Positions 794 to 46,433 of a stretch of DNA of 55,864 nucleotides are shown here, one piece after another. Every line of letters starts with the position of its first letter. Position 1 is the stretch's first letter. A program made the position numbers and the translations under genes. The notes beneath the pieces were generated by a model. That model saw nothing but the letters and a program-made list of their open reading frames with translations. It was not told the origin of the DNA and made no database searches. This DNA comes from Minisyncoccota bacterium (lineage in GTDB: Bacteria; Patescibacteriota; Minisyncoccia; Phycocordibacterales; JAGLOS01), in the NCBI GenBank assembly GCA_023137615.1, contig JAGLOS010000002.1, positions 1-55,864 on the forward strand. The letters are read 5' to 3'.

Positions 794-2134
794 ATGAAAG
801 AAACGAATACATTCCAGCTCATACTCCTCGGTGTTTTTGGTTTTTTTATTATTATCGGAGTGATGTATTTTGCGGGCGGGGGCGGGCTTGAGCAAGATGA
901 AGACGAAATAAACTACGGGACGATCACTGTATGGGGGTTTATTTCAGAGCGTGATTTTTCTGATATATTCAGTGAGCTGGATTTCACGATGGAAATAGAA
1001 TATGTCCAAAAGCCGGAGGAGACTCTGCTCCGCGAAATGGAAAAAGCGCTGGCAAAATCAAAAGGTCCGGATGTGATCATTATGCCGCCGGGACAGTTCA
1101 TTAGTTTTAGAGAATATCTTTTGCCTCTTCCGGAGACGTATATTACGAATCGAGATTTCTCTGATCTTTTTGTCGAACAAGCAGAGGCGTATATTGGAGA
1201 AGAGGGTATATATGCTATGCCACTTGTGATCGATCCGATGGTTATGTACTGGAATAGAAGCATTTTTAATTCAAATGGAGTGAGTCGGGTGCCATCGGTG
1301 TGGGATGAGTTCAAAACCCTTACTCCTAAGATGACCATCGTTGAAGGCGGTACTACAATAACCCGAAGTACACTGCCAATGGGTGAATTTGTGAATGTTA
1401 CTCATGCGAAAGATATCTTGTCGATGCTTATTATGCAGTCCGGCGCACCTATCGTGTCCTCAGACCGTGGTGTTTTAGAGGTGGATGTGAATTCTCCAAT
1501 AGATGGGATATATCCGGGTGTAACCGCTTTTGATTTTTATACGGAGTTCTCAAATCAGAAATTACCAACATACAACTGGAATCGTTCACTTCCGTCGTCG
1601 GTAGAGATGTTTGCCGGGAATAATAGCGCGGTGTATCTGGGGTATGCAAGCGAAGCTGCTGACATAAAGCGTCAAAATCCACATCTTAATTTTGATGTGG
1701 CAATGGTGCCGCAGAAGCGTGATACGAACAACAAGATCACATATGGGAGGATGAGCGGTGCGGGTGTGTTGATAAATAGTAACAACAAACAAGGTGCGGC
1801 GAAATTTGTGAGTGTCTTATCAGGCAAGAGCAGTGACCCAAATAAACTTACATATTCTCTTTTGTTATCAGAAACACTCCATCTTCCCCCGACGCATCGA
1901 CTTCTTCTGAACAACAAACCAAATGATGCTTTTATGTCAGTATTTTATGATTCGGCGAGTATTAGCAAATCGTGGCCGGACCCATCACCGGGGGAAACAA
2001 ATATCATATTTAGCGAAGCTATTGACACAGTGGTCTCCGACCGTTTCTCGACCGACGTGGTGGTCAGTGGATTGGAGAGGCAGCTTGATAGTATAATCAG
2101 TGAGTTTATCAGAAGTAGCACGGTTGAAGAATAA
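794..2134 (+). CDS. Membrane-anchored extracellular solute-binding-like protein (ABC family-1 SBP fold, tentative)
   Basis: 446-aa ORF with an N-terminal TM helix. Segments GPDVIIMPPGQF, YAMPLVIDPMVMYWNRSIF and VPSVWDEF resemble sugar-type SBPs. No permease or ATPase is adjacent. Confidence 0.55.
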   Translation: MKETNTFQLILLGVFGFFIIIGVMYFAGGGGLEQDEDEINYGTITVWGFISERDFSDIFSELDFTMEIEYVQKPEETLLREMEKALAKSKGPDVIIMPPGQFISFREYLLPLPETYITNRDFSDLFVEQAEAYIGEEGIYAMPLVIDPMVMYWNRSIFNSNGVSRVPSVWDEFKTLTPKMTIVEGGTTITRSTLPMGEFVNVTHAKDILSMLIMQSGAPIVSSDRGVLEVDVNSPIDGIYPGVTAFDFYTEFSNQKLPTYNWNRSLPSSVEMFAGNNSAVYLGYASEAADIKRQNPHLNFDVAMVPQKRDTNNKITYGRMSGAGVLINSNNKQGAAKFVSVLSGKSSDPNKLTYSLLLSETLHLPPTHRLLLNNKPNDAFMSVFYDSASISKSWPDPSPGETNIIFSEAIDTVVSDRFSTDVVVSGLERQLDSIISEFIRSSTVEE

Positions 2135-7170: not shown

Positions 7171-7191
7171 TCCTGACATTAAAACTCATAA

Positions 7192-7221
7192 AAACAAAAA
7201 CCCCGAGAGGGGTTTTTGTTT
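7192..7221 (+). terminator. Rho-independent terminator ending the pilin array
   Basis: Stem AAACAAAAACCCC / GGGGTTTTTGTTT with loop GAGA. Confidence 0.8.
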
Positions 7222-7674
7222 TAGGAAGGGGGAGGACTTGGCGCCGCTTCTAAATTTACACTTCGTGCTTCACACTTGTGTTCATTAAGAGTCCTCGACC
7301 CTGTCGCTCCGCTCCGAATTTTCGTTTCTCAGATTCGGACTTCGTGCGGATTTTTTTCAGGTCCTCTTCCCGGCAGGCACGGGACTTGGTCACGAGTCAC
7401 TAATCCTTTTGTTCGTCCTATTGGACTCCAAAACGCTAAGTGCTCTCCTCCTTACAGGAGCTGTCCACTCATTGGATCTTTTGTTTCGTTTCACTCACAA
7501 AAGCTCTCAATGAGTCTTGCGAAGCTCCAAGTATTCGCTTCTCACCCCGACTCGCAGCCCCTTCTCCTACACTTCGTTACGGAGTGGGGACCCGCTGCTC
7601 CGTCTTTCAAGTCCTCTCCCCGGCAACAAATAAACGGTGATAATGCTACACATTACCACCGTTTATTTGTATTG
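7222..7674 (+). repeat. tRNA-flank repeat module converging on tRNA-Leu(TAG), ending in an inverted copy of that tRNA's 3' end plus a hairpin
   Basis: It contains a T-arm-like fragment (7356-7375 TTCAGGTCCTCTTCCCGGCA) and a structured family copy (7448-7605). A perfect 20-nt copy of the tRNA 3' end sits at 7606-7625, and a 14-bp hairpin at 7626-7639/7657-7670. The ORFs listed here are translations of repeats. Confidence 0.75.
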
Positions 7675-7756
7675 TGCCGGGGAGAGGACTTGAACCTCCA
7701 CGGATTGCTCCACTTGCTCCTAAGGCAAGCGCGTCTACCAATTTCGCCACCCCGGC
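7675..7756 (-). tRNA. tRNA-Leu(TAG): tRNA-Leu (anticodon TAG), type II with long variable arm
   Basis: The reverse complement folds as GCCGGGG/CCCCGGC acceptor, anticodon arm CTTGC-CTTAGGA-GCAAG and T-arm GGAGG-TTCAAGT-CCTCT. No CCA is encoded. Confidence 0.9.
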
Positions 7757-8037: not shown

Positions 8038-8400
8038 GGACTTGTCCCACGATTACTAAGTATCGCTGGACCTGCCTGTCGGTAGGCGCGGCTCGGCGAC
8101 AGGTACTCGCTTCGCTCGTTCAAATCTATTGTCGTCACAAGTCACTAAGCATATTTTTCGTTCTCGCAAGGCGGGCTCAAAGATAAACACAGGACTTGTC
8201 CCACGATTACTAAGTATATTTCTTCACAAAGCTCCTTCAAATTTCTTGTCGTCACAAGTCACTAAGTATATTTTTCGTTCTCGCAAGGCGGGCTCAAAGA
8301 TAAACACAGGACTTGTCCCACGATTACTAAGTATATTTCTTCGCAAAGCTCCTTCAAATTTCTTGTCGTCACAAGTCACTAAGTATATTTTTCGTGCTTC
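8038..8400 (-). repeat. Tandem repeat, 117-bp period (about 3 units, the first a 154-bp variant), downstream of tRNA-Lys
   Basis: Units start GGACTTGTCCCACGATTACTAAGT at 8038, 8192 and 8309. Units 2 and 3 are nearly identical. The 39-aa periodicity in ORF 8129-8578 is an artefact of this repeat. Confidence 0.85.
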
Positions 8401-8517
8401 GCACTCAAATCTACTAAGTGCTCGCGACCCCGGCTCACCTATTTTTCTTCCATTTCATTACAGAAAAATTATGGTTCCGCCTCGGACAAGCGTCGCAAGC
8501 AAAGCAGTTTGCTTGCT

Positions 8518-8552
8518 AAAACAAAAGCACCCTAAACGGGTGCTTTTGTTTT
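8518..8552 (-). terminator. Hairpin/terminator downstream of tRNA-Lys
   Basis: 15-bp stem AAAACAAAAGCACCC / GGGTGCTTTTGTTTT with loop TAAAC. A- and T-runs make it usable in both directions. Confidence 0.75.
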
Positions 8553-8559
8553 GCGCTTG

Positions 8560-8632
8560 TCCGCCCAGTAGGACTTGAACCTACGACCGTTCGCTTAAGA
8601 GGCGACTGCTCTACCAACTGAGCTATGGGCGG
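8560..8632 (-). tRNA. tRNA-Lys(CTT): tRNA-Lys (anticodon CTT)
   Basis: The reverse complement has D-arm GCTC-AGTTGGTA-GAGC, anticodon loop CTCTTAA and T-arm GTAGG-TTCAAGT-CCTAC. The acceptor is CCGCCCA/TGGGCGG, an unusual C1:G72 pair. Confidence 0.85.
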
Positions 8633-8763: not shown

Positions 8764-9028
8764 GAAAGCAAAGCAGTTTGCTTTCTCCTCGGGCACAAAT
8801 TACTAAGTATTATTCGGAGCAAAGCTCCTCAAATACTAAGTACCCCCTTCCTTACAGGAACTGTACACCTTTTGGATATTTTATACATTCGCTGCTCTCA
8901 TTTTAAAATATCTCAAAAGGTTTTACAAAGCTCCAAGTGTTCGCTTCTCACCCCGCCTCGCAGCCCCACCTTCCGCTTCGCTACAGGTAGGGACCCGCTG
9001 CTCCGGCTTTCGACCCCCGCTCCGTGCT
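8764..9028 (+). repeat. tRNA-flank structured repeat (family copy B) converging on tRNA-Leu(TAA)
   Basis: It holds a mini-hairpin GAAAGCAAAGCAGTTTGCTTTC (8764-8785) and hairpins at 8848-8860 and 8867-8921. The conserved block GCTCCAAGTGTTCGCTTCTCACC follows. It ends with TTCGACCCCCGC (9009-9020), an inverted copy of the tRNA T-arm. Confidence 0.75.
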
Positions 9029-9076
9029 ACAAAACAATAAATATGACATACTATCGCATGTCATATTTTCGTTTTG
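9029..9076. terminator. Hairpin between the repeat module and tRNA-Leu(TAA)
   Basis: Outer stem ACAAAAC / GTTTTGT, whose distal T at 9077 is the tRNA discriminator position, and inner stem AATATGACAT (9040-9049) / ATGTCATATT (9058-9067). Confidence 0.65.
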
Positions 9077-9158
9077 TGCCCGAGGCGGGGGTCGAACCCG
9101 CATCCCGTTAGGGACACGATTTTAAGTCGTGCGCGTATACCAATTCCGCCACTCGGGC
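9077..9158 (-). tRNA. tRNA-Leu(TAA): tRNA-Leu (anticodon TAA), type II
   Basis: The reverse complement is GCCCGAG...CTCGGGC+A, with anticodon arm CACGA-CTTAAAA-TCGTG and T-arm GCGGG-TTCGACC-CCCGC. Confidence 0.9.
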
Positions 9159-9507: not shown

Positions 9508-9552
9508 TCAAAGGGCAGAATCGGAGTTGTTCAATTGTTAGTGTACATCATA

Positions 9553-9617
9553 CATGTCGGTTTTGCACCTGCCTGCCGGCAGGCAGGGACCGAAGCGTTA
9601 CCACTTCGCCGCAAGGC
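9553..9617 (-). pseudogene. Pseudo-tRNA-Cys (5' two-thirds only) with a 20-nt perfect palindrome in the anticodon loop
   Basis: It matches the real tRNA-Cys from the acceptor 5' strand through the anticodon stem 3' strand. CCTGCCTGCCGGCAGGCAGG (9568-9587) is inserted after position 32. There is no T-arm and no acceptor 3' strand. Confidence 0.75.
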
Positions 9618-17947: not shown

Positions 17948-17966
17948 AAAGAAAATTTGCTTAGAA

Positions 17967-17998
17967 TGTAATACGTACTTTTAAAAGTACGTATTACA
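17967..17998 (+). terminator. Palindromic hairpin after clpB, abutting tRNA-Tyr
   Basis: TGTAATACGTACTTTT / AAAAGTACGTATTACA form a perfect 32-nt palindrome. Confidence 0.7.
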
Positions 17999-18001
17999 TA
18001 T

Positions 18002-18085
18002 GCGTCGGTGGCGGAGTGGTCAATCGCGGCGGACTGTAAATCCGCTGACTTTATGTCTACGTTGGTTCAAATCCAACCCGGCGCA
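18002..18085 (+). tRNA. tRNA-Tyr(GTA): tRNA-Tyr (anticodon GTA), type II
   Basis: Acceptor GCGTCGG/CCGGCGC, anticodon arm GCGGA-CTGTAAA-TCCGC, a long variable arm and T-arm GTTGG-TTCAAAT-CCAAC. Confidence 0.9.
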
Positions 18086-18087
18086 CA

Positions 18088-18129
18088 AAATACCAAAACC
18101 AGAGCGAAAACTCTGGTTTTGTTGTATTT
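18088..18129 (+). terminator. Hairpin/terminator after tRNA-Tyr
   Basis: AAATACCAAAACCAGAG / CTCTGGTTTTGTTGTATTT with one bulge. The outer stem sequence resembles the hairpin at 23381-23424. Confidence 0.75.
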
Positions 18130-18133
18130 GTTA

Positions 18134-18152
18134 CGCCGGGTTGGATTTGAAC
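18134..18152 (-). repeat. Inverted copy of the tRNA-Tyr 3' end
   Basis: CGCCGGGTTGGATTTGAAC is the exact reverse complement of 18066-18084 (19/19). Confidence 0.85.
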
Positions 18153-20269: not shown

Positions 20270-20431
20270 ATGTCACAGAATCAATTGATCAAATTACAGT
20301 GCACCAAGTGTAAGAACCTTAATTACTGGTCACGAAAGAACAAAAAGCTTGTTGTGCGGAAAATTGAGCTTGAAAAGTATTGTAATACTTGCCGGGCAAA
20401 GACACTTCATAAAGAGATCAAAAAGAAATAA
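20270..20431 (+). CDS. rpmG: 50S ribosomal protein L33
   Basis: 53 aa, below the ORF-track cutoff: MSQNQLIKLQCTKCKNLNYWSRKNKKLVVRKIELEKYCNTCRAKTLHKEIKKK. It has the two CxxC pairs and the KYC..C...H.E.K signature of L33. Confidence 0.85.
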   Translation: MSQNQLIKLQCTKCKNLNYWSRKNKKLVVRKIELEKYCNTCRAKTLHKEIKKK

Positions 20432-20469
20432 CAAAAGAAAACAGCCCATAAGGGCTGTTTTCTTTTGTT
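20430..20469. terminator. Bidirectional terminator shared by rpmG and tRNA-Trp
   Basis: 18-bp stem AACAAAAGAAAACAGCCC / GGGCTGTTTTCTTTTGTT with loop ATAA. Confidence 0.8.
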
Positions 20470-20472
20470 ATG

Positions 20473-20543
20473 CGGGCCCACGAGGACTCGAACCTCGGTC
20501 AACGGTTTTGGAGACCGTTATTCTACCACTGAACTATAGGCCC
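20473..20543 (-). tRNA. tRNA-Trp(CCA): tRNA-Trp (anticodon CCA)
   Basis: The reverse complement is GGGCCTA...TGGGCCC+G, with anticodon arm ACGGT-CTCCAAA-ACCGT and T-arm CGAGG-TTCGAGT-CCTCG. Length 71 nt. Confidence 0.9.
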
Positions 20544-21683: not shown

Positions 21684-21765
21684 GCCGGAGTGGCGGAATT
21701 GGTAGACGCGCACGACTCAAAATCGTGTTCCTTCGGGAGTGGGAGTTCGATTCTCCCCTCCGGCA
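21684..21765 (+). tRNA. tRNA-Leu(CAA): tRNA-Leu (anticodon CAA), type II
   Basis: Acceptor GCCGGAG/CTCCGGC+A, anticodon arm CACGA-CTCAAAA-TCGTG and T-arm GGGAG-TTCGATT-CTCCC. Confidence 0.9.
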
Positions 21766-21960
21766 CATATGTAACAACGCCTTTTGGGGCGTTTTTGCAT
21801 ATGTGCCGGAGAGCAAGCAAACCGCTTTGCTTGCGTGGGAGAATCGAAAGGCGGAGCTATATCGCACGGAGCGTAGCGAGTACGACAGCGAGCCCGGGTA
21901 GGAAGCTCTTAGTGTTTTTAAGCTCTGCAAGAGCGTAAAAAATACTTAGAGACTTGACGC
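21766..21960 (-). repeat. tRNA-flank module: hairpin, split inverted copy of the tRNA-Leu(CAA) 3' end, and family body
   Basis: TGCCGGAG (21804-21811) is the reverse complement of 21758-21765. GGGAGAATCGAA (21837-21848) is the reverse complement of 21746-21757. The mini-hairpin GCAAGCAAACCGCTTTGCTTGC (21813-21834) separates them. The body resembles the reverse complement of 7427-7600. Confidence 0.75.
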
Positions 21961-22062
21961 CGATTCGCCCTACTGCAAAAACAAAAAGAATCCTTTTTTA
22001 TAAAAACGAATTGATCAAGATATTCACATACATTCATAAAAAGTACGTGATATAATACACGC

Positions 22063-23107: not shown

Positions 23108-23181
23108 GGGCCCGTAGCTCAGTTGGCTAGAGCACCTGTTTTGCACTCAGGAGGTCGCAGGTTCAATTCCTGTCGGGTCCA
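23108..23181 (+). tRNA. tRNA-Ala(TGC): tRNA-Ala (anticodon TGC)
   Basis: GGGCCCG acceptor with the G3:U70 pair, anticodon loop TTTGCAC (31:39 is a T:T mismatch) and T-arm GCAGG-TTCAATT-CCTGT. Confidence 0.85.
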
Positions 23182-23700
23182 CAAAAACCAAAATCCAAGC
23201 GATAGCTTGGGTTTTGTTGTTTTTGCGAGACCCGACAGGAATTGAACGGCGCAAGGCGGTATACAAGACGACCGTAGGGAGTGCTTGTCGCCGCGCCGCG
23301 TCCAGCAGTACTTATGAACTTGGAGTCCCGTAGGGCGAACAAGCGAGTTAGTAACTGCGGGACAATTCCTCTATGTCCACAAATTACCAAAACCGAAGCG
23401 TCTGCTTCGGTTTTGTTGTAATTTGTAGGACCCGACAGGAATTGAAAGACGGAGCAGGGGTTCCCTGCCTGTAGCGAAGCGGAAGGTAGGGCTGCGAGTC
23501 AGGGTCGTGAGCACTTAGCGTTTTTGGAGCATGAAAGGAGAACAAAAAGCTTAGTGACTCCTGACCAATTCCTCTAGGTCCACAACGACAAAAAAACTCG
23601 CGTATGCGAGTTTTTTTAATGTCGTTGTGGACCCGACAGGAGTTGCGACATTGTTTCCCTGTGAGCTTGTGAGTTAGGGTGCCTTTGTTGTGAACAGCCA
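23182..23700 (+). repeat. Three tandem modules of about 200 bp derived from the tRNA-Ala 3' end
   Basis: Inverted copies GACCCGACAGGAATTGAA(C) lie at 23229-23247 and 23428-23446, with a decayed one at 23628-23645. Decayed direct copies lie at 23361-23381 and 23561-23584. Hairpins lie at 23183-23225, 23381-23424 and 23583-23628. ORFs 23163-23390 and 23384-23701 are artefacts. Confidence 0.8.
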
Positions 23701-26588: not shown

Positions 26589-26701
26589 TGTTTTTCGCCA
26601 GATCTTAAACATAAAGGATGTGGATGTATTTTAATTATGCCATGTCCATTTGAATAAGAAAAGGAATATTATGTAAGAGAGTGGACGGGAACTAAGAGAA
26701 A

Positions 26702-26733
26702 CAAAAACACCCCGCATAAATGCGGGGTGTTTT
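26702..26733 (-). terminator. Rho-independent terminator of the csp gene
   Basis: Stem AAAAACACCCCGCA / TGCGGGGTGTTTTT. Read on the minus strand, a U-run follows. Confidence 0.8.
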
Positions 26734-26747
26734 TGTTGTTGACTTTA

Positions 26748-30847: not shown

Positions 30848-30897
30848 ATAACGGGTATTGAATTCAAGAGCTTGCTCTTGAATTCAATACCCGTTAT
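30848..30897. repeat. 50-bp near-perfect palindrome (24-bp arms)
   Basis: ATAACGGGTATTGAATTCAAGAGC-TT-GCTCTTGAATTCAATACCCGTTAT. It is intergenic, between the 30390 ORF and creD. Confidence 0.85.
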
Positions 30898-36735: not shown

Positions 36736-36815
36736 CGTCATTGCGAACGAAGTGAAGCAATCTAGGGTATGCAAGTTGTAACTCTGGATTGCTTCGCCTA
36801 CGTCTCGCAATGACG
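36736..36815. repeat. Complete hairpin family A element (about 80 nt)
   Basis: CGTCATTGCGAACGAAGTGAAGCAATCTAG...ACTCTGGATTGCTTCGCCTACGTCTCGCAATGACG. The arms are imperfectly complementary. Confidence 0.8.
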
Positions 36816-36932
36816 AATTTGTAGTAAAGGGATAATTCTATTATGTTGTGTATAACGTTGTAGTTATATAGACTAGCGGGTGATATACTTTAAGATATTA
36901 AGATATATTTATTAGTTATCTAATTATTTATT

Positions 36933-38059: not shown

Positions 38060-38256
38060 GTCATTGCGAGTCGCAAGTCCGCAGTGTCCGCAGACTAAGC
38101 AATCCAACACCCAACGTCATTGCGAGAAGTGATACGGAGCGAAGCGGAGTAGCATGACGAAGCAATCCAGAGTATGTTGGTATAACTCTGGATTGCTTCG
38201 CCTGCGGCTCGCAATGACGATAGTGATCTTAACCAAACATAATCATCGTTTCCCTA
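38060..38256. repeat. Two nested/adjacent hairpin family A elements plus the conserved tail
   Basis: GTCATTGCGAG occurs at 38060 and 38118. The right arm is ACTCTGGATTGCTTCGCCTGCGGCTCGCAATGACG (38185-38219). The tail TTAACCAAACATAATCATCGTTTCCCTA lies at 38229-38256. Confidence 0.8.
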
Positions 38257-42884: not shown

Positions 42885-42919
42885 AAAAGCGTTGTTGTAA
42901 AGTTACAACAACGCTTTTT
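42885..42919 (+). terminator. Rho-independent terminator
   Basis: 15-bp stem AAAAGCGTTGTTGTA / TACAACAACGCTTTT. Confidence 0.8.
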
Positions 42920-46019: not shown

Positions 46020-46262
46020 GCTCCGGACTCAATTTTGAGTTCGCTTCGCTTTCGCTTTCCAGCGGCAAGCCGACGGGGTATTTACCTGATATTATTTCCT
46101 TACAGGAACTGTCCACTTATTGGACTTTTTATTTCGTTTCACTCACAAAAATTCTCAATAAGTCTTGCGAAAGCTCCAAGTGTTCGCTTTCTCACCTCGG
46201 CTCGGGAATGCAAAAGTTACGCTTCGCTCCACTTTTGCATTCCGCTCGCTCTACGTCGCTAA
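46020..46262 (+). repeat. Orphan copy (C) of the tRNA-flank structured repeat family, with no tRNA adjacent
   Basis: 46096-46196 aligns with 7448-7545 and 8848-8953: TTCCTTACAGGAACTGTCCACTTATTGG...CAATAAGTCTTGCGAAAGCTCCAAGTGTTCGCTTTCTCACC. ORF 46011-46262 is an artefact. Confidence 0.75.
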
Positions 46263-46433
46263 TAAAAACGAGTGTGTCGTTTGCTGCGCTCCATATAACA
46301 TTAAATGTTATAAGAAGTCAATATTTTAGTGTTACAAATTCGTTTAAGTCGGACTTTTTGCTGCGTCAAAAGGAAATTGTAAGAGCCATTATCTCGGAAT
46401 TTTTTGAAGTAAATGAAATATTTTACAAAATAG

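Follow-up and report, generated by a model that had tools for sequence, protein, structure and literature searches.

Inverted copies of tRNA 3' ends were found to be real, and to be the inner arm of non-coding, hairpin-rich elements of 130-450 nt rather than a stand-alone feature. The elements sit directly behind tRNA genes in Paceibacteria (ultra-small CPR bacteria) and form a family that is so far undescribed; no relevant publication on such elements was found in a literature search. As an explanation of the whole, we lean, if not strongly, towards a family of inserted elements that are closed by a helix between the inverted copy and a displaced direct copy of the tRNA 3' segment, this helix copying the acceptor/T-stem stack of the tRNA. 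The window is the whole stretch of DNA that was analysed (55,864 nt).

Inverted copies of tRNA 3' ends

tRNA genes were called with ARAGORN and Rfam, and eight were found in the window. We denote the T-loop-to-discriminator segment of a tRNA as X and the inverted copy of this segment as X'. In six of the eight genes a terminator hairpin and then X' of the gene's own X followed the tRNA. The initial annotation had described each copy as matching its own tRNA and starting in the T-loop, and this was seen throughout. It was right about the arms at tRNA-Leu(TAG) and tRNA-Ala, the core at tRNA-Leu(TAA), the split copy at tRNA-Leu(CAA), where a 23-nt hairpin lies between the two parts, and the inverted match at tRNA-Lys, which is only 10 nt long and covers the tRNA end and the trailer. 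The match at tRNA-Tyr also held, but its first arm lies at 18065-18083, one position away from where it had been placed. The central hairpin at tRNA-Leu(TAG), given earlier as 14 bp, pairs at 19 of 20 positions (7626-7645 with 7651-7670). No inverted 3'-end copy was found at tRNA-Trp or tRNA-Cys in the window; the absence at tRNA-Trp, where the terminator is common to the convergent rpmG, had been pointed out before.

The tRNA genes, arms and hairpins in the window are:

7675..7756, minus strand: tRNA-Leu(TAG); X is its last 20 nt (7675-7694)
7626..7670, no strand assigned: hairpin between X and X' of tRNA-Leu(TAG), 19/20 bp, with A-rich and T-rich flanks
7606..7625, minus strand: X' of tRNA-Leu(TAG), exact reverse complement of X (20/20)
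9077..9158, minus strand: tRNA-Leu(TAA); X at 9077-9096
8796..9068, minus strand: element of tRNA-Leu(TAA), with terminator (9039-9068), X' (9009-9029, 12/12 match in its 12-nt exact core) and body
8473..8559, minus strand: region downstream of tRNA-Lys (gene at 8560-8632), with trailer and terminator (8518-8552)
8495-8517, minus strand: conserved hairpin (hpC) of the tRNA-Lys region, AGCAAGCAAACTGCTTTGCTTGC
within 8473..8559, after hpC, minus strand: decayed inverted copy of tRNA-Lys, CGCTTGTCCG...GGAACC
18065..18152, plus strand: palindrome of tRNA-Tyr, X at 18065-18083 and X' at 18134-18152 (19/19), with no recognisable body after X'
18094-18121, both strands: central hairpin of the tRNA-Tyr palindrome, terminator-like on both strands
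20428..20543, minus strand: tRNA-Trp site (gene at 20473-20543), with a perfect terminator of 20-bp arms common to the convergent rpmG; the site is empty here
21746..21977, plus strand: element of tRNA-Leu(CAA), with X (21746-21766), terminator hairpin, first part of X' (X'a, 21803-21811), hpC (21812-21834) and second part of X' (X'b, 21835-21848)
23161..23645, plus strand: array of three tandem units at tRNA-Ala
Unit 1 of tRNA-Ala, plus strand: X (23161-23179), terminator (23189-23216), X'1 (23229-23247, 19/19) and body

The earlier statement that X' has no tRNA fold was borne out: it is the reverse complement of the T-loop and 3' strand, with no T-stem 5' strand in tRNA order, and neither ARAGORN nor Rfam called a tRNA in the X' regions. 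X' is a true reverse complement and reads ATTTGAA where the direct copy is TTCAAAT. A degenerate tandem or convergent tRNA copy was rejected, as X' reads ..GGATTTGAA or ..GGATTCGAA and not GGTTCAAAT. A tRNA primer-binding site was rejected as well: X' lacks the TGG for pairing with CCA, has TTG, GTT or the like in front of it, and corresponds to the genomic ..CAC-AAA rather than to a mature end with CCA.

Ranked by length, the short-range inverted repeats of the 55.9-kb window were headed by the three palindromes of tRNA-Tyr, tRNA-Ala and tRNA-Leu(TAG), and dinucleotide shuffles gave 0.00-0.02 expected matches for these 19-20-mers. An exact inverted copy of the 3' end of at least 9 nt within 150 nt downstream was then scored in 93 tRNAs (the window and 80 related loci). 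Such a copy was found for 19 of the 93, and the copies recur in related genomes. The controls in the same tRNAs gave none for the inverted 5' end downstream, none for the inverted 3' end upstream and two for the inverted 5' end upstream. With local alignment of 126 tRNAs, the inverted T-loop/T-stem part was matched at 10 of 12 positions or better in 26 cases, vs 0 in controls.

An assembly artefact was ruled out, as three other assemblies were 99.9-100% identical over the regions covered (L081 covers all three palindromes, L082 that of tRNA-Ala, and L083 the tRNA-Leu(CAA) site). When close relatives were sought that might reveal strain-level polymorphism, only such identical contigs and relatives with at most 79% Ddl identity came up. 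The elements also break assemblies: two contigs stop 48 nt short of ddl.

Architecture of the elements

The initial annotation had set aside integrase scars on the ground that these are direct and not inverted repeats. This objection fails, since the segment X also occurs as direct repeats that flank the elements as an att-like identity block. Those of relatives are perfect 16-21-mers; those of the window have changed but can still be recognised. Conserved, repeated and structured DNA between the inverted and the direct copies had been overlooked. On the tRNA-sense strand the layout is tRNA with X, terminator, X', modules, a second direct X, and then the ancestral trailer and terminator, with X spanning the T-loop to one position beyond the discriminator. 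X' is whole in the window genome except at tRNA-Leu(CAA); elsewhere it is mostly split by hpC, which is 23 nt long. Type-1 modules form a three-way junction, GGGGUGAGAA-H1-GCAAGACC-H2-GGUGUACAG-H3, with a UGUAA loop on H3, and the type-2 domain reads GACGGAGC..GCGAGNCGGGGUC..CUUAGUGAYUCGUGACC. In the window these parts are:

7382..7605, minus strand: structured body of tRNA-Leu(TAG), on the tRNA-sense strand, holding AGACGGAGCAGC...GCUGCGAGUC
about 7447-7548, minus strand: three-way junction of tRNA-Leu(TAG), GGGGUGAGAA-H1-GCAAGAC-H2-GUGGACAG-H3
within 7382..7605, minus strand: further motif of the same body, ...CUUAG...GAUUAGUGACUCGUGACC
7382-7387, minus strand: relic distal X at the end of this body, AAGTCC, which pairs with GGACTT of X'
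7356..7375, minus strand: second, older inverted 3'-end copy of tRNA-Leu(TAG), 2 mismatches in 20
7228-7239 (in 7191..7239), minus strand: outermost relic of direct X of tRNA-Leu(TAG), AAGTCCTCCCCC
7191-7222, minus strand: terminator-like hairpin after this relic, probably ancestral
8942-8954, minus strand: GGGGTGAGAAGCG of the three-way junction in the body of the tRNA-Leu(TAA) element, with H3 at 8848-8866
8765..8795, minus strand: older split inverted copy of tRNA-Leu(TAA), TGCCCGAGGAG, then a small hpC-type hairpin
after X'b of tRNA-Leu(CAA), plus strand: type-2 body, AGGCGGAGC...GCGAGCCCGGG...CTTAGAGACTTGACGCC
21962-21977, plus strand: relic distal X of tRNA-Leu(CAA), GATTCGCCCTACTGCA
Unit 2 of tRNA-Ala, plus strand: X2 (23364-23379), terminator (23388-23415), X'2 (23428-23446) and type-2 body (23447-23566)
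Unit 3 of tRNA-Ala, plus strand: X3 (23567-23582), hairpin and X'3 (23628-23645)
46096..46292, minus strand: solitary structured module, GGAGCGCAGC...GAGGTGAGAAAGCG-H1-GCAAGAC-H2-GTGGACAG-H3

Comparison of the window with itself brought out the repeated body beside X' (7436-7608, 8836-9011, 46097-46204 and 23412-23505). The tRNA-Leu(TAA) and tRNA-Leu(TAG) bodies are 76.5% identical over 179 nt. The solitary module has no nearby tRNA and is 88% identical to the tRNA-Leu(TAG) copy over 108 nt.

The same layout was found at 28 metagenome loci, at Ile, Leu, Ala, Pro, Ser, His, Thr, Arg, Asp and Tyr tRNAs, and the junction was always ..TYGAA|RRVCYTT. Perfect direct repeats of the tRNA segment, 16-21 nt long, were found at L001, L004, L012, L015, L034, L045 and L071, and the direct copies in relatives lie 130-330 nt downstream. 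At tRNA-Trp/rpmG the window and L045 have an empty site and L005, L015 and L071 a filled one, and tRNA-Leu(CAA) of the closest relative, L085, has no downstream inverted or direct copy. Tandem units occur at tRNA-Tyr of L004, tRNA-Leu of L086 and tRNA-Ala of the window. Elements at different tRNAs can be 80-86% identical (Leu vs Tyr within L004; Ala of L089 vs Leu(TAA) of the window). In several elements, read by eye, the distal X is followed by CCA and the proximal X by C and A-rich sequence. In at least one pair of elements, L092 (Ile) and L103 (Pro), which differ in tRNA and contig, the proximal terminator is conserved and hence element-borne; a simple local inverted triplication (X-terminator-X'-X-terminator) was rejected on this conservation. 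We also rejected the idea that reverse transcriptase stopping at m1A58 sets the boundary of the direct repeat, which ranges from position 54 to 58.

One exact module motif matched at least 120 metagenome contigs. Among the matches listed, about 70% of the module copies lie away from tRNAs, and the module is a more general repeat for which tRNA genes are one of several contexts.

The elements contain no ORF, and no recombinase lies beside the loci examined. Among 30 ORFs of the window scanned with Pfam, none encoded a transposase, integrase, reverse transcriptase, TnpB or Cas protein, and the ORFs next to 120 metagenome loci, among the matches listed, included no consistent partner gene. At these loci a truncated reverse-transcriptase pseudogene that abuts the module of L164 was, apart from one false positive, the sole find of this type. 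In the window and 12 related loci Rfam returned only tRNA, 5S, 23S and a group I intron, and no covariance model matched the modules at E up to 1-10. Likeness to the SRP Alu domain or to a T-box, suggested by GGUG and UGUAA motifs, was rejected on the misfit in helix order and the lack of an Rfam match. Viral contigs searched with three patterns gave 0, 0 and 9 matches; the nine were chance matches in coding DNA without H2 or H3, and no type-1 or type-2 element was found there.

Origin of the inverted arm

The initial annotation had proposed that the palindromes grew by template switching. In its neutral form this would be quasi-palindrome extension or correction at strong hairpins, which makes both X' and the distal X: selection guards the tRNA arm, the far arm becomes a functionless X', and the same process around the modules gives the distal X. 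Like the products of such mutagenesis, X' is an exact inverted copy of a hairpin flank, away from the selected arm. X, hairpin and X' form one continuous palindrome including the trailer and the A/T tracts, the tRNA-Lys match spans the tRNA end and trailer, and X' follows the genomic ..CAC. The terminators in the window are perfect palindromes of unusual length, their 16-24-bp arms matching at 100%, and at tRNA-Trp/rpmG, where both arms are constrained, there is no extension. In L164 what closes the module is a protein gene's end together with the inverted copy of that end, and the perfect tRNA-adjacent X' in the window fits ongoing arm-to-arm correction. However, a mutational process predicts no conserved modules, fixed junctions or direct copy, and it leaves the modules, the element-borne terminator, the invariant ..TYGAA|RRVCYTT junction and the hpC at the same position of X' in dozens of independent tRNAs unexplained. 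In addition, X'2 of tRNA-Ala is perfect to the tRNA though its hairpin partner X2 differs. We therefore consider template switching a plausible contributing step in making or maintaining X' and not a full account; that it explains everything is possible but rather unlikely.

Strand-specific structure

Whole elements fold closed, with z-scores of -2.8 to -10, and the sense strand was the more stable in 7 of 7. For module copies the sense strand was the more stable in 101 of 106, and G.U pairs numbered 365 vs 197. Three variable pairs of H3 are paired in 111-113 of 115 copies, with 3-4 pair types each. The modules have the same orientation as neighbouring tRNAs in 39 cases and the opposite one in 3. 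The modules are thus strand-specific, with G.U pairs and orientation following the tRNA strand; the asymmetry of G.U pairs would also fit a strand-specific single-stranded DNA intermediate.

Another earlier proposal was that a convergent, opposite-strand transcript ends in a mimic of the tRNA 3' end and uses a shared terminator. The central hairpins of tRNA-Tyr and tRNA-Ala were indeed called as terminators on both strands, and the conserved body, read on the opposite strand, runs directly into the sense sequence of the tRNA 3' end. The Leu(TAA) hairpin was called on the tRNA strand and those of Leu(TAG) and Leu(CAA) were not called; the terminator proper does not include the X and X' arms. 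By the above counts of stability, G.U pairs and orientation, it is the tRNA-sense strand that carries the conserved structure, and this disfavours the convergent transcript to the point that we give it hardly any credence.

The third proposal was a read-through pre-tRNA in which a long X:X' helix serves for processing of the RNase III type or for quality control, to which stronger termination can be added as a possible role. The helix is thermodynamically real: if X' is transcribed, the X:X' hairpin is more stable than the tRNA fold by 16-24 kcal/mol, and X' is perfect in the window genome. There is no sign that it is the selected function. The tRNA fold would be lost in forming it, hpC interrupts an already imperfect X' in the canonical relatives, and the distal X is a competing partner of X'. 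The helix is also dispensable for tRNA maturation, because many orthologous tRNAs in relatives lack the feature. Such a role is in our judgement very unlikely.

In the closing-helix explanation that we favour, X' pairs with the distal X and closes the element as a multi-branch fold. The helix formed in this way copies the stacked acceptor and T stems of the tRNA next to it, and complementarity of X' to the tRNA 3' end comes with it automatically. Units at tRNA-Ala, tRNA-Leu(TAG) and tRNA-Leu(CAA) in the window are still closed by an X'b:distal X helix. The direct copies of X in the window differ from the tRNA whereas X' is perfect, and pairing with the tRNA itself fits this at least as well as a constraint on the closing helix.

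Comparison with known systems and possible mechanism

As at the T-loop crossover att sites of phages, ICEs and genomic islands that target tRNA genes, the T-loop-to-3'-end segment is duplicated directly around an insert, the proximal copy preserves the tRNA, the distal copy has the ancestral trailer, starting with CCA in several, and units accrete in tandem. Unlike those insertions, the elements have no integrase or coding capacity, measure 130-450 nt instead of kilobases, carry an internal inverted att copy and a conserved RNA-like interior, and use many different tRNAs for homologous elements.

In CTXphi/IMEX attP and integron attC, the predicted integrated order is site, loop, inverted site, rest of the element, site. 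By analogy, the element could be a small single-stranded circle in which an X:X' duplex mimics the tRNA gene end and undergoes one-strand exchange, giving X, loop, X', the rest of the element and X. Two close inverted target-like sites that can fold into a duplex were found here, and the predicted layout is the one observed, including the arrangement of units in tandem and the presence of sequence belonging to the element behind the proximal X; the structure is strand-specific as well. The target here is a tRNA gene end and not dif or attI, however, and the arms copy each individual tRNA and not one conserved site. No linked Xer, IntI or Rep gene was seen, a heterologous crossover within X would break a single-copy tRNA, and no type-1 or type-2 copy was found in viral contigs. 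We know of no such elements near 130-200 nt, all being far larger, so that units of this size fall far below the range. A folded attachment site is accordingly a doubtful explanation.

An RNA of the element might instead steer a trans-encoded enzyme to tRNA gene ends with X' as the guide, as in TnpB omega-RNA, bridge RNA or the EBS pairing of group II introns, complementarity then being selected at the level of the element. A conserved scaffold with flanking 17-21-nt target-identical segments suits such a guide, as does the X'2 of tRNA-Ala, which matches the tRNA at 19/19 though 250 nt away from it. Unit 2 at tRNA-Tyr of L004 resembles a Leu-type element that was partly re-matched to its new tRNA. 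On the other hand, neither the window nor the inspected loci contain a nuclease, recombinase or reverse-transcriptase partner, and most relatives have an imperfect X' (9-13 nt) but a perfect direct repeat. The likeness to IS200/IS605 omega-RNA and non-autonomous PATEs, a structured scaffold followed by 17-21 target-identical nt, is one of architecture alone; no TnpB or TnpA was found, and the target copy here is duplicated and also inverted. A guide function is thus improbable, more so than the folded site.

The elements share with REP/BIME sequences, MITEs and Rickettsia palindromic elements that they are small, non-coding, multi-copy, hairpin-forming and lineage-specific, lie in extragenic 3' regions and sometimes within RNA gene copies, and show presence/absence polymorphism. 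They differ in that the neighbouring gene is the source from which the closing arms are copied, and in having as their core a complex multi-helix junction with conserved unpaired nucleotides. Their ends derive from the host by copying; we recognised neither fixed terminal inverted repeats nor short target duplications, and saw no transposase. The acceptor/T-stem-like end helix could recruit RNase P, RNase Z or the CCA enzyme, as in tRNA-linked small RNAs, mascRNA-type 3' ends, bacterial YrlA and viral tRNA-like structures. Unlike those handles, the putative handle here is a copy of the adjacent tRNA sequence, and the T-loop is replaced by large modules.

For the inserted, closed element that we prefer, we propose the following course. 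The element would be mobile now or have been so formerly, with the ..TYGAA end of X' recognising the near-universal T-loop. Strand-switch copying across the hairpins, during insertion or later, may generate X' and the distal X from the target, and may also maintain the perfect X' in the window genome. The element sits behind a terminator, and its putative transcription would be read-through from the tRNA; the tRNA-like closing helix could let RNase P, RNase Z or the CCA enzyme set its ends. A bolder version, which we put forward as speculation and think unlikely, is a new class of selfish RNA/DNA element that targets the universal tRNA T-loop, rebuilds the tRNA tail, and forms an acceptor/T-stem mimic from its internal antisense copy and the displaced tail. 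It would be excised from read-through transcripts by RNase P/RNase Z and CCA-tagged, with X' as both guide and structural strand, and would be a prokaryotic analogue of tRNA-derived SINEs. Related copies are also present at 5S rRNA and other gene ends.

Implications

CPR genomes are usually described as streamlined and repeat-poor. If our reading is true, the few mobile or repetitive elements known in CPR would be joined by a new kind of repeat associated with tRNA genes. The three-way-junction module is widespread and, being absent from Rfam, is a candidate for a new class of structured RNA. The elements could mislead the annotation of tRNAs, terminators and small RNAs in CPR MAGs. If the closing helix recruits tRNA-processing enzymes, or if X' guides insertion, they would represent a new non-coding exploitation of tRNA biology.

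Inverted copies of tRNA 3' ends

Eight tRNA genes were identified in the window, with ARAGORN and Rfam in agreement. The initial annotation had described, downstream of several of them, an inverted copy (X') of the segment from T-loop to discriminator (X), and this was borne out. At tRNA-Leu-TAG (20/20 nt), tRNA-Tyr and tRNA-Ala (19/19 each) X' is an exact reverse complement beyond a hairpin, 44-50 nt further on from X; the central hairpins at Tyr and Ala are terminator-like on both strands. No other short-range inverted repeat of the window is as long as these three palindromes, and the expected number of such matches in shuffles was 0.00-0.02. The copy at Leu-TAA has an exact core of 12 nt, that at Leu-CAA is split by a 23-nt hairpin, that at Lys is decayed and extends over the trailer, and tRNA-Trp has none. 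Other assemblies had identical sequence wherever their coverage reaches these regions.

Among the window tRNAs compared, no inverted copy of the 3' end was found at tRNA-Cys. This gene lies within a perfect 22-bp helix (9422-9443/9501-9522) formed by the acceptor stem with 13-15 nt of 5' leader and 3' trailer, an extended, processing-stem-like duplex distinct from the X/X' layout. About 50 nt upstream there is a partial copy of its 5' part, from acceptor to anticodon arm (~9552-9617, minus strand), with the anticodon loop broken by a 20-nt palindrome, CCTGCCTGCCGGCAGGCAGG (about 9568-9587).

The window belongs to a Paceibacteria/Parcubacteria (CPR) chromosome, with genes including those for IF-2, ClpC, MiaA, Ddl, MurC and MnmA. 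The layout was not confined to it: among 93 tRNAs from the window and 80 MiaA-centred loci of related MAGs, an inverted 3' end (at least 9 nt) was present within 150 nt downstream of 19, compared with 0, 0 and 2 matches for three control queries. By alignment-based scores on 126 tRNAs, the T-loop/T-stem part was inverted in 26 cases and the acceptor part in 16, vs 0 in controls for each. Direct copies of X showed enrichment as well (20 vs 4); those of relatives are perfect 16-21-mers at a distance of 130-330 nt downstream.

An inserted, structured element

X' proved to be an arm of a structured element that is repeated and has been inserted. Beyond X' the window holds repeated non-coding DNA (7436-7608, 8836-9011, 46097-46204 and 23412-23505 resemble one another), and relatives share a canonical layout.

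Canonical layout of the element in relatives, on the tRNA-sense strand
Part 1: tRNA, then terminator
Part 2: X'a, reverse complement of the acceptor 3' strand
Part 3: hpC, small hairpin AGCAAGCAAAnnnnTTTGCTTGC
Part 4: X'b, ..GGATTCGAA
Part 5: H2, long hairpin ACCTTTTGAG..CCAAAAGGT, then GTACAG
Part 6: H3 hairpin with UGUAA loop
Part 7: direct copy of X (distal X), followed by the old trailer

The motif AAAGGTGTACAGNNNCTGTAAG was found in at least 120 stretches of metagenome contigs. Among the matches listed, 28 are found 80-180 nt behind a tRNA on the same strand, with many specificities; this layout is common to all 28 tRNA-linked loci, as is an invariant junction, ..TYGAA|RRVCYTT. The body also exists in a second type, GACGGAGC-hairpin-GCGAGNCGGGGTCGCGAGCACTTAG-hairpin-CTTAGTGAYTCGTGACC, with X after it, and composites of both occur at window Leu-TAG, window Leu-TAA and an Ala locus (L089). 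Downstream of tRNA-Lys, a 117-nt tandem repeat (8114-8403, copies 96% identical) is built from pieces like those of the second type (..ACTTAGT.., ..CTTAGTGACTTGTGACGA..).

At tRNA-Trp/rpmG the window and one related locus (L045) have an empty site, and three other loci (L005, L015, L071) a filled one, in which the element separates the tRNA from the ancestral shared terminator. Behind tRNA-Leu-CAA, neither an inverted nor a direct copy is present in the closest relative recovered (L085, with a 79% identical Ddl), and L086 has two units in tandem. Arrays also occur at tRNA-Tyr of L004 and at window tRNA-Ala (three units). In the latter, X'2 (23428-23446) matches the tRNA 19/19; the direct copies beside it, X2 and X3 (AATTCCTCTAKGTCCA), deviate from the tRNA, yet are similar to one another. 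Elements at different tRNAs are 80-86% identical, and the proximal terminator is conserved between tRNA-Ile (L092) and tRNA-Pro (L103) on different contigs. In several elements, read by eye, CCA follows distal X and C, then A-rich sequence, follows the proximal copy; this difference suggests that the original end of the gene is the distal one.

Because the junction is invariant, the position of hpC conserved and the terminator element-borne, insertion would be a precise, T-loop-directed process. The layout observed is exactly the one predicted for a folded single-strand att site like those of CTXphi or attC, but no enzyme supports this mechanism and we consider it improbable. The copies themselves may have been made by DNA-level strand-switch copying, since the continuous palindrome takes in trailer and A/T tracts, X' fits the genomic sequence and not the CCA end, and long perfect palindromic terminators are habitual in this genome. 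Such intergenic palindromes, with unusually long arms of 16-24 bp and 100% complementarity, lie at 30848-30897, 17966-17999, 20428-20471, 26700-26737 and 42885-42918.

Strand-specific folding

Whole elements, from X' to distal X, gave closed multi-branch folds (z-scores -2.8 to -10) in which distal X pairs with both X'a and X'b, hpC branches where acceptor and T-stem meet, and the place of the T-loop is taken by H2 and H3. The sense strand was the more stable in 7/7 whole elements and in 101 of 106 distinct module copies, across which G.U pairs numbered 365 on the sense vs 197 on the opposite strand. The three variable pairs of H3 were paired in 111-113 of 115 copies, with three or four pair types each. 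Modules and neighbouring tRNAs had the same orientation in 39 cases and opposite in 3. The window units are still closed by an X'b-distal X helix, namely GGACTTG/CAAGTCC at Leu-TAG and GTAGGACC/GGTCCAC plus AGGAATT/AATTCCT in Ala unit 2.

Should transcripts include X', the X:X' helix would win over the tRNA fold by 16-24 kcal/mol; pairing of X' with distal X instead would leave the tRNA free. Complementarity to X' is common to the tRNA 3' end and the duplicated closing tail, and pairing with the tail is probably its source.

The module beyond tRNA genes

The module belongs to a three-way junction, GGGGUGAGAA-H1-GCAAGACC-H2-GGUGUACAG-H3, and is more general than its tRNA context, with about 70% of the matches listed lying away from tRNAs. 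A solitary junction is found in the window at 46096-46292. In L109 it lies behind a true 5S gene (1711-1817, minus strand), within a duplicate of the 5S 3' part, with a direct repeat of 23 nt. In L096 and L182 an antisense module is inserted within 5S-like pseudo-copies; that of L096 also contains a mini-hairpin one base different from CCTGCCTGCCGGCAGGCAGG, and the 23S of this locus has a group I intron match. In L164 (motif 1475-1497, oriented locus) the module follows a pterin-carbinolamine-dehydratase-like ORF, its closing stem is formed by the last codons of the ORF and their inverted copy, and its other side is flanked by a truncated pseudogene, on the opposite strand, that resembles a reverse transcriptase.

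The junction is also the apex of a longer conserved non-coding RNA, absent from Rfam (L107, L116, L143, L186, L207, L208 and L106). Its closing helix is 15 bp (e.g. GAAGTTTTGGCAAA/TTTGCCAAAACTTC), a GGAGGGGTYTGGGGAGGAAT motif often comes after it, and it sometimes lies directly behind tRNAs. No Rfam family matched the element modules, and no description turned up in the literature searched.

Other repeats and genome assembly

Small repeats unrelated to the tRNA elements, such as ACTCTGGATTGCTTCG...CGCAATGACG hairpin repeats, were seen at 8-110, 36754-36816, 38088-38256 and 138-175/42286-42342/47505-47557. This 56-kb CPR stretch is unexpectedly rich in repeats. Two contigs from other assemblies (L082 and L084) both end at about 22016 of the window, which is 48 nt upstream of ddl and some 40 nt past the tRNA-Leu-CAA element on its downstream side. 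As they break at the same point, repeats may be a cause of fragmented CPR assemblies.
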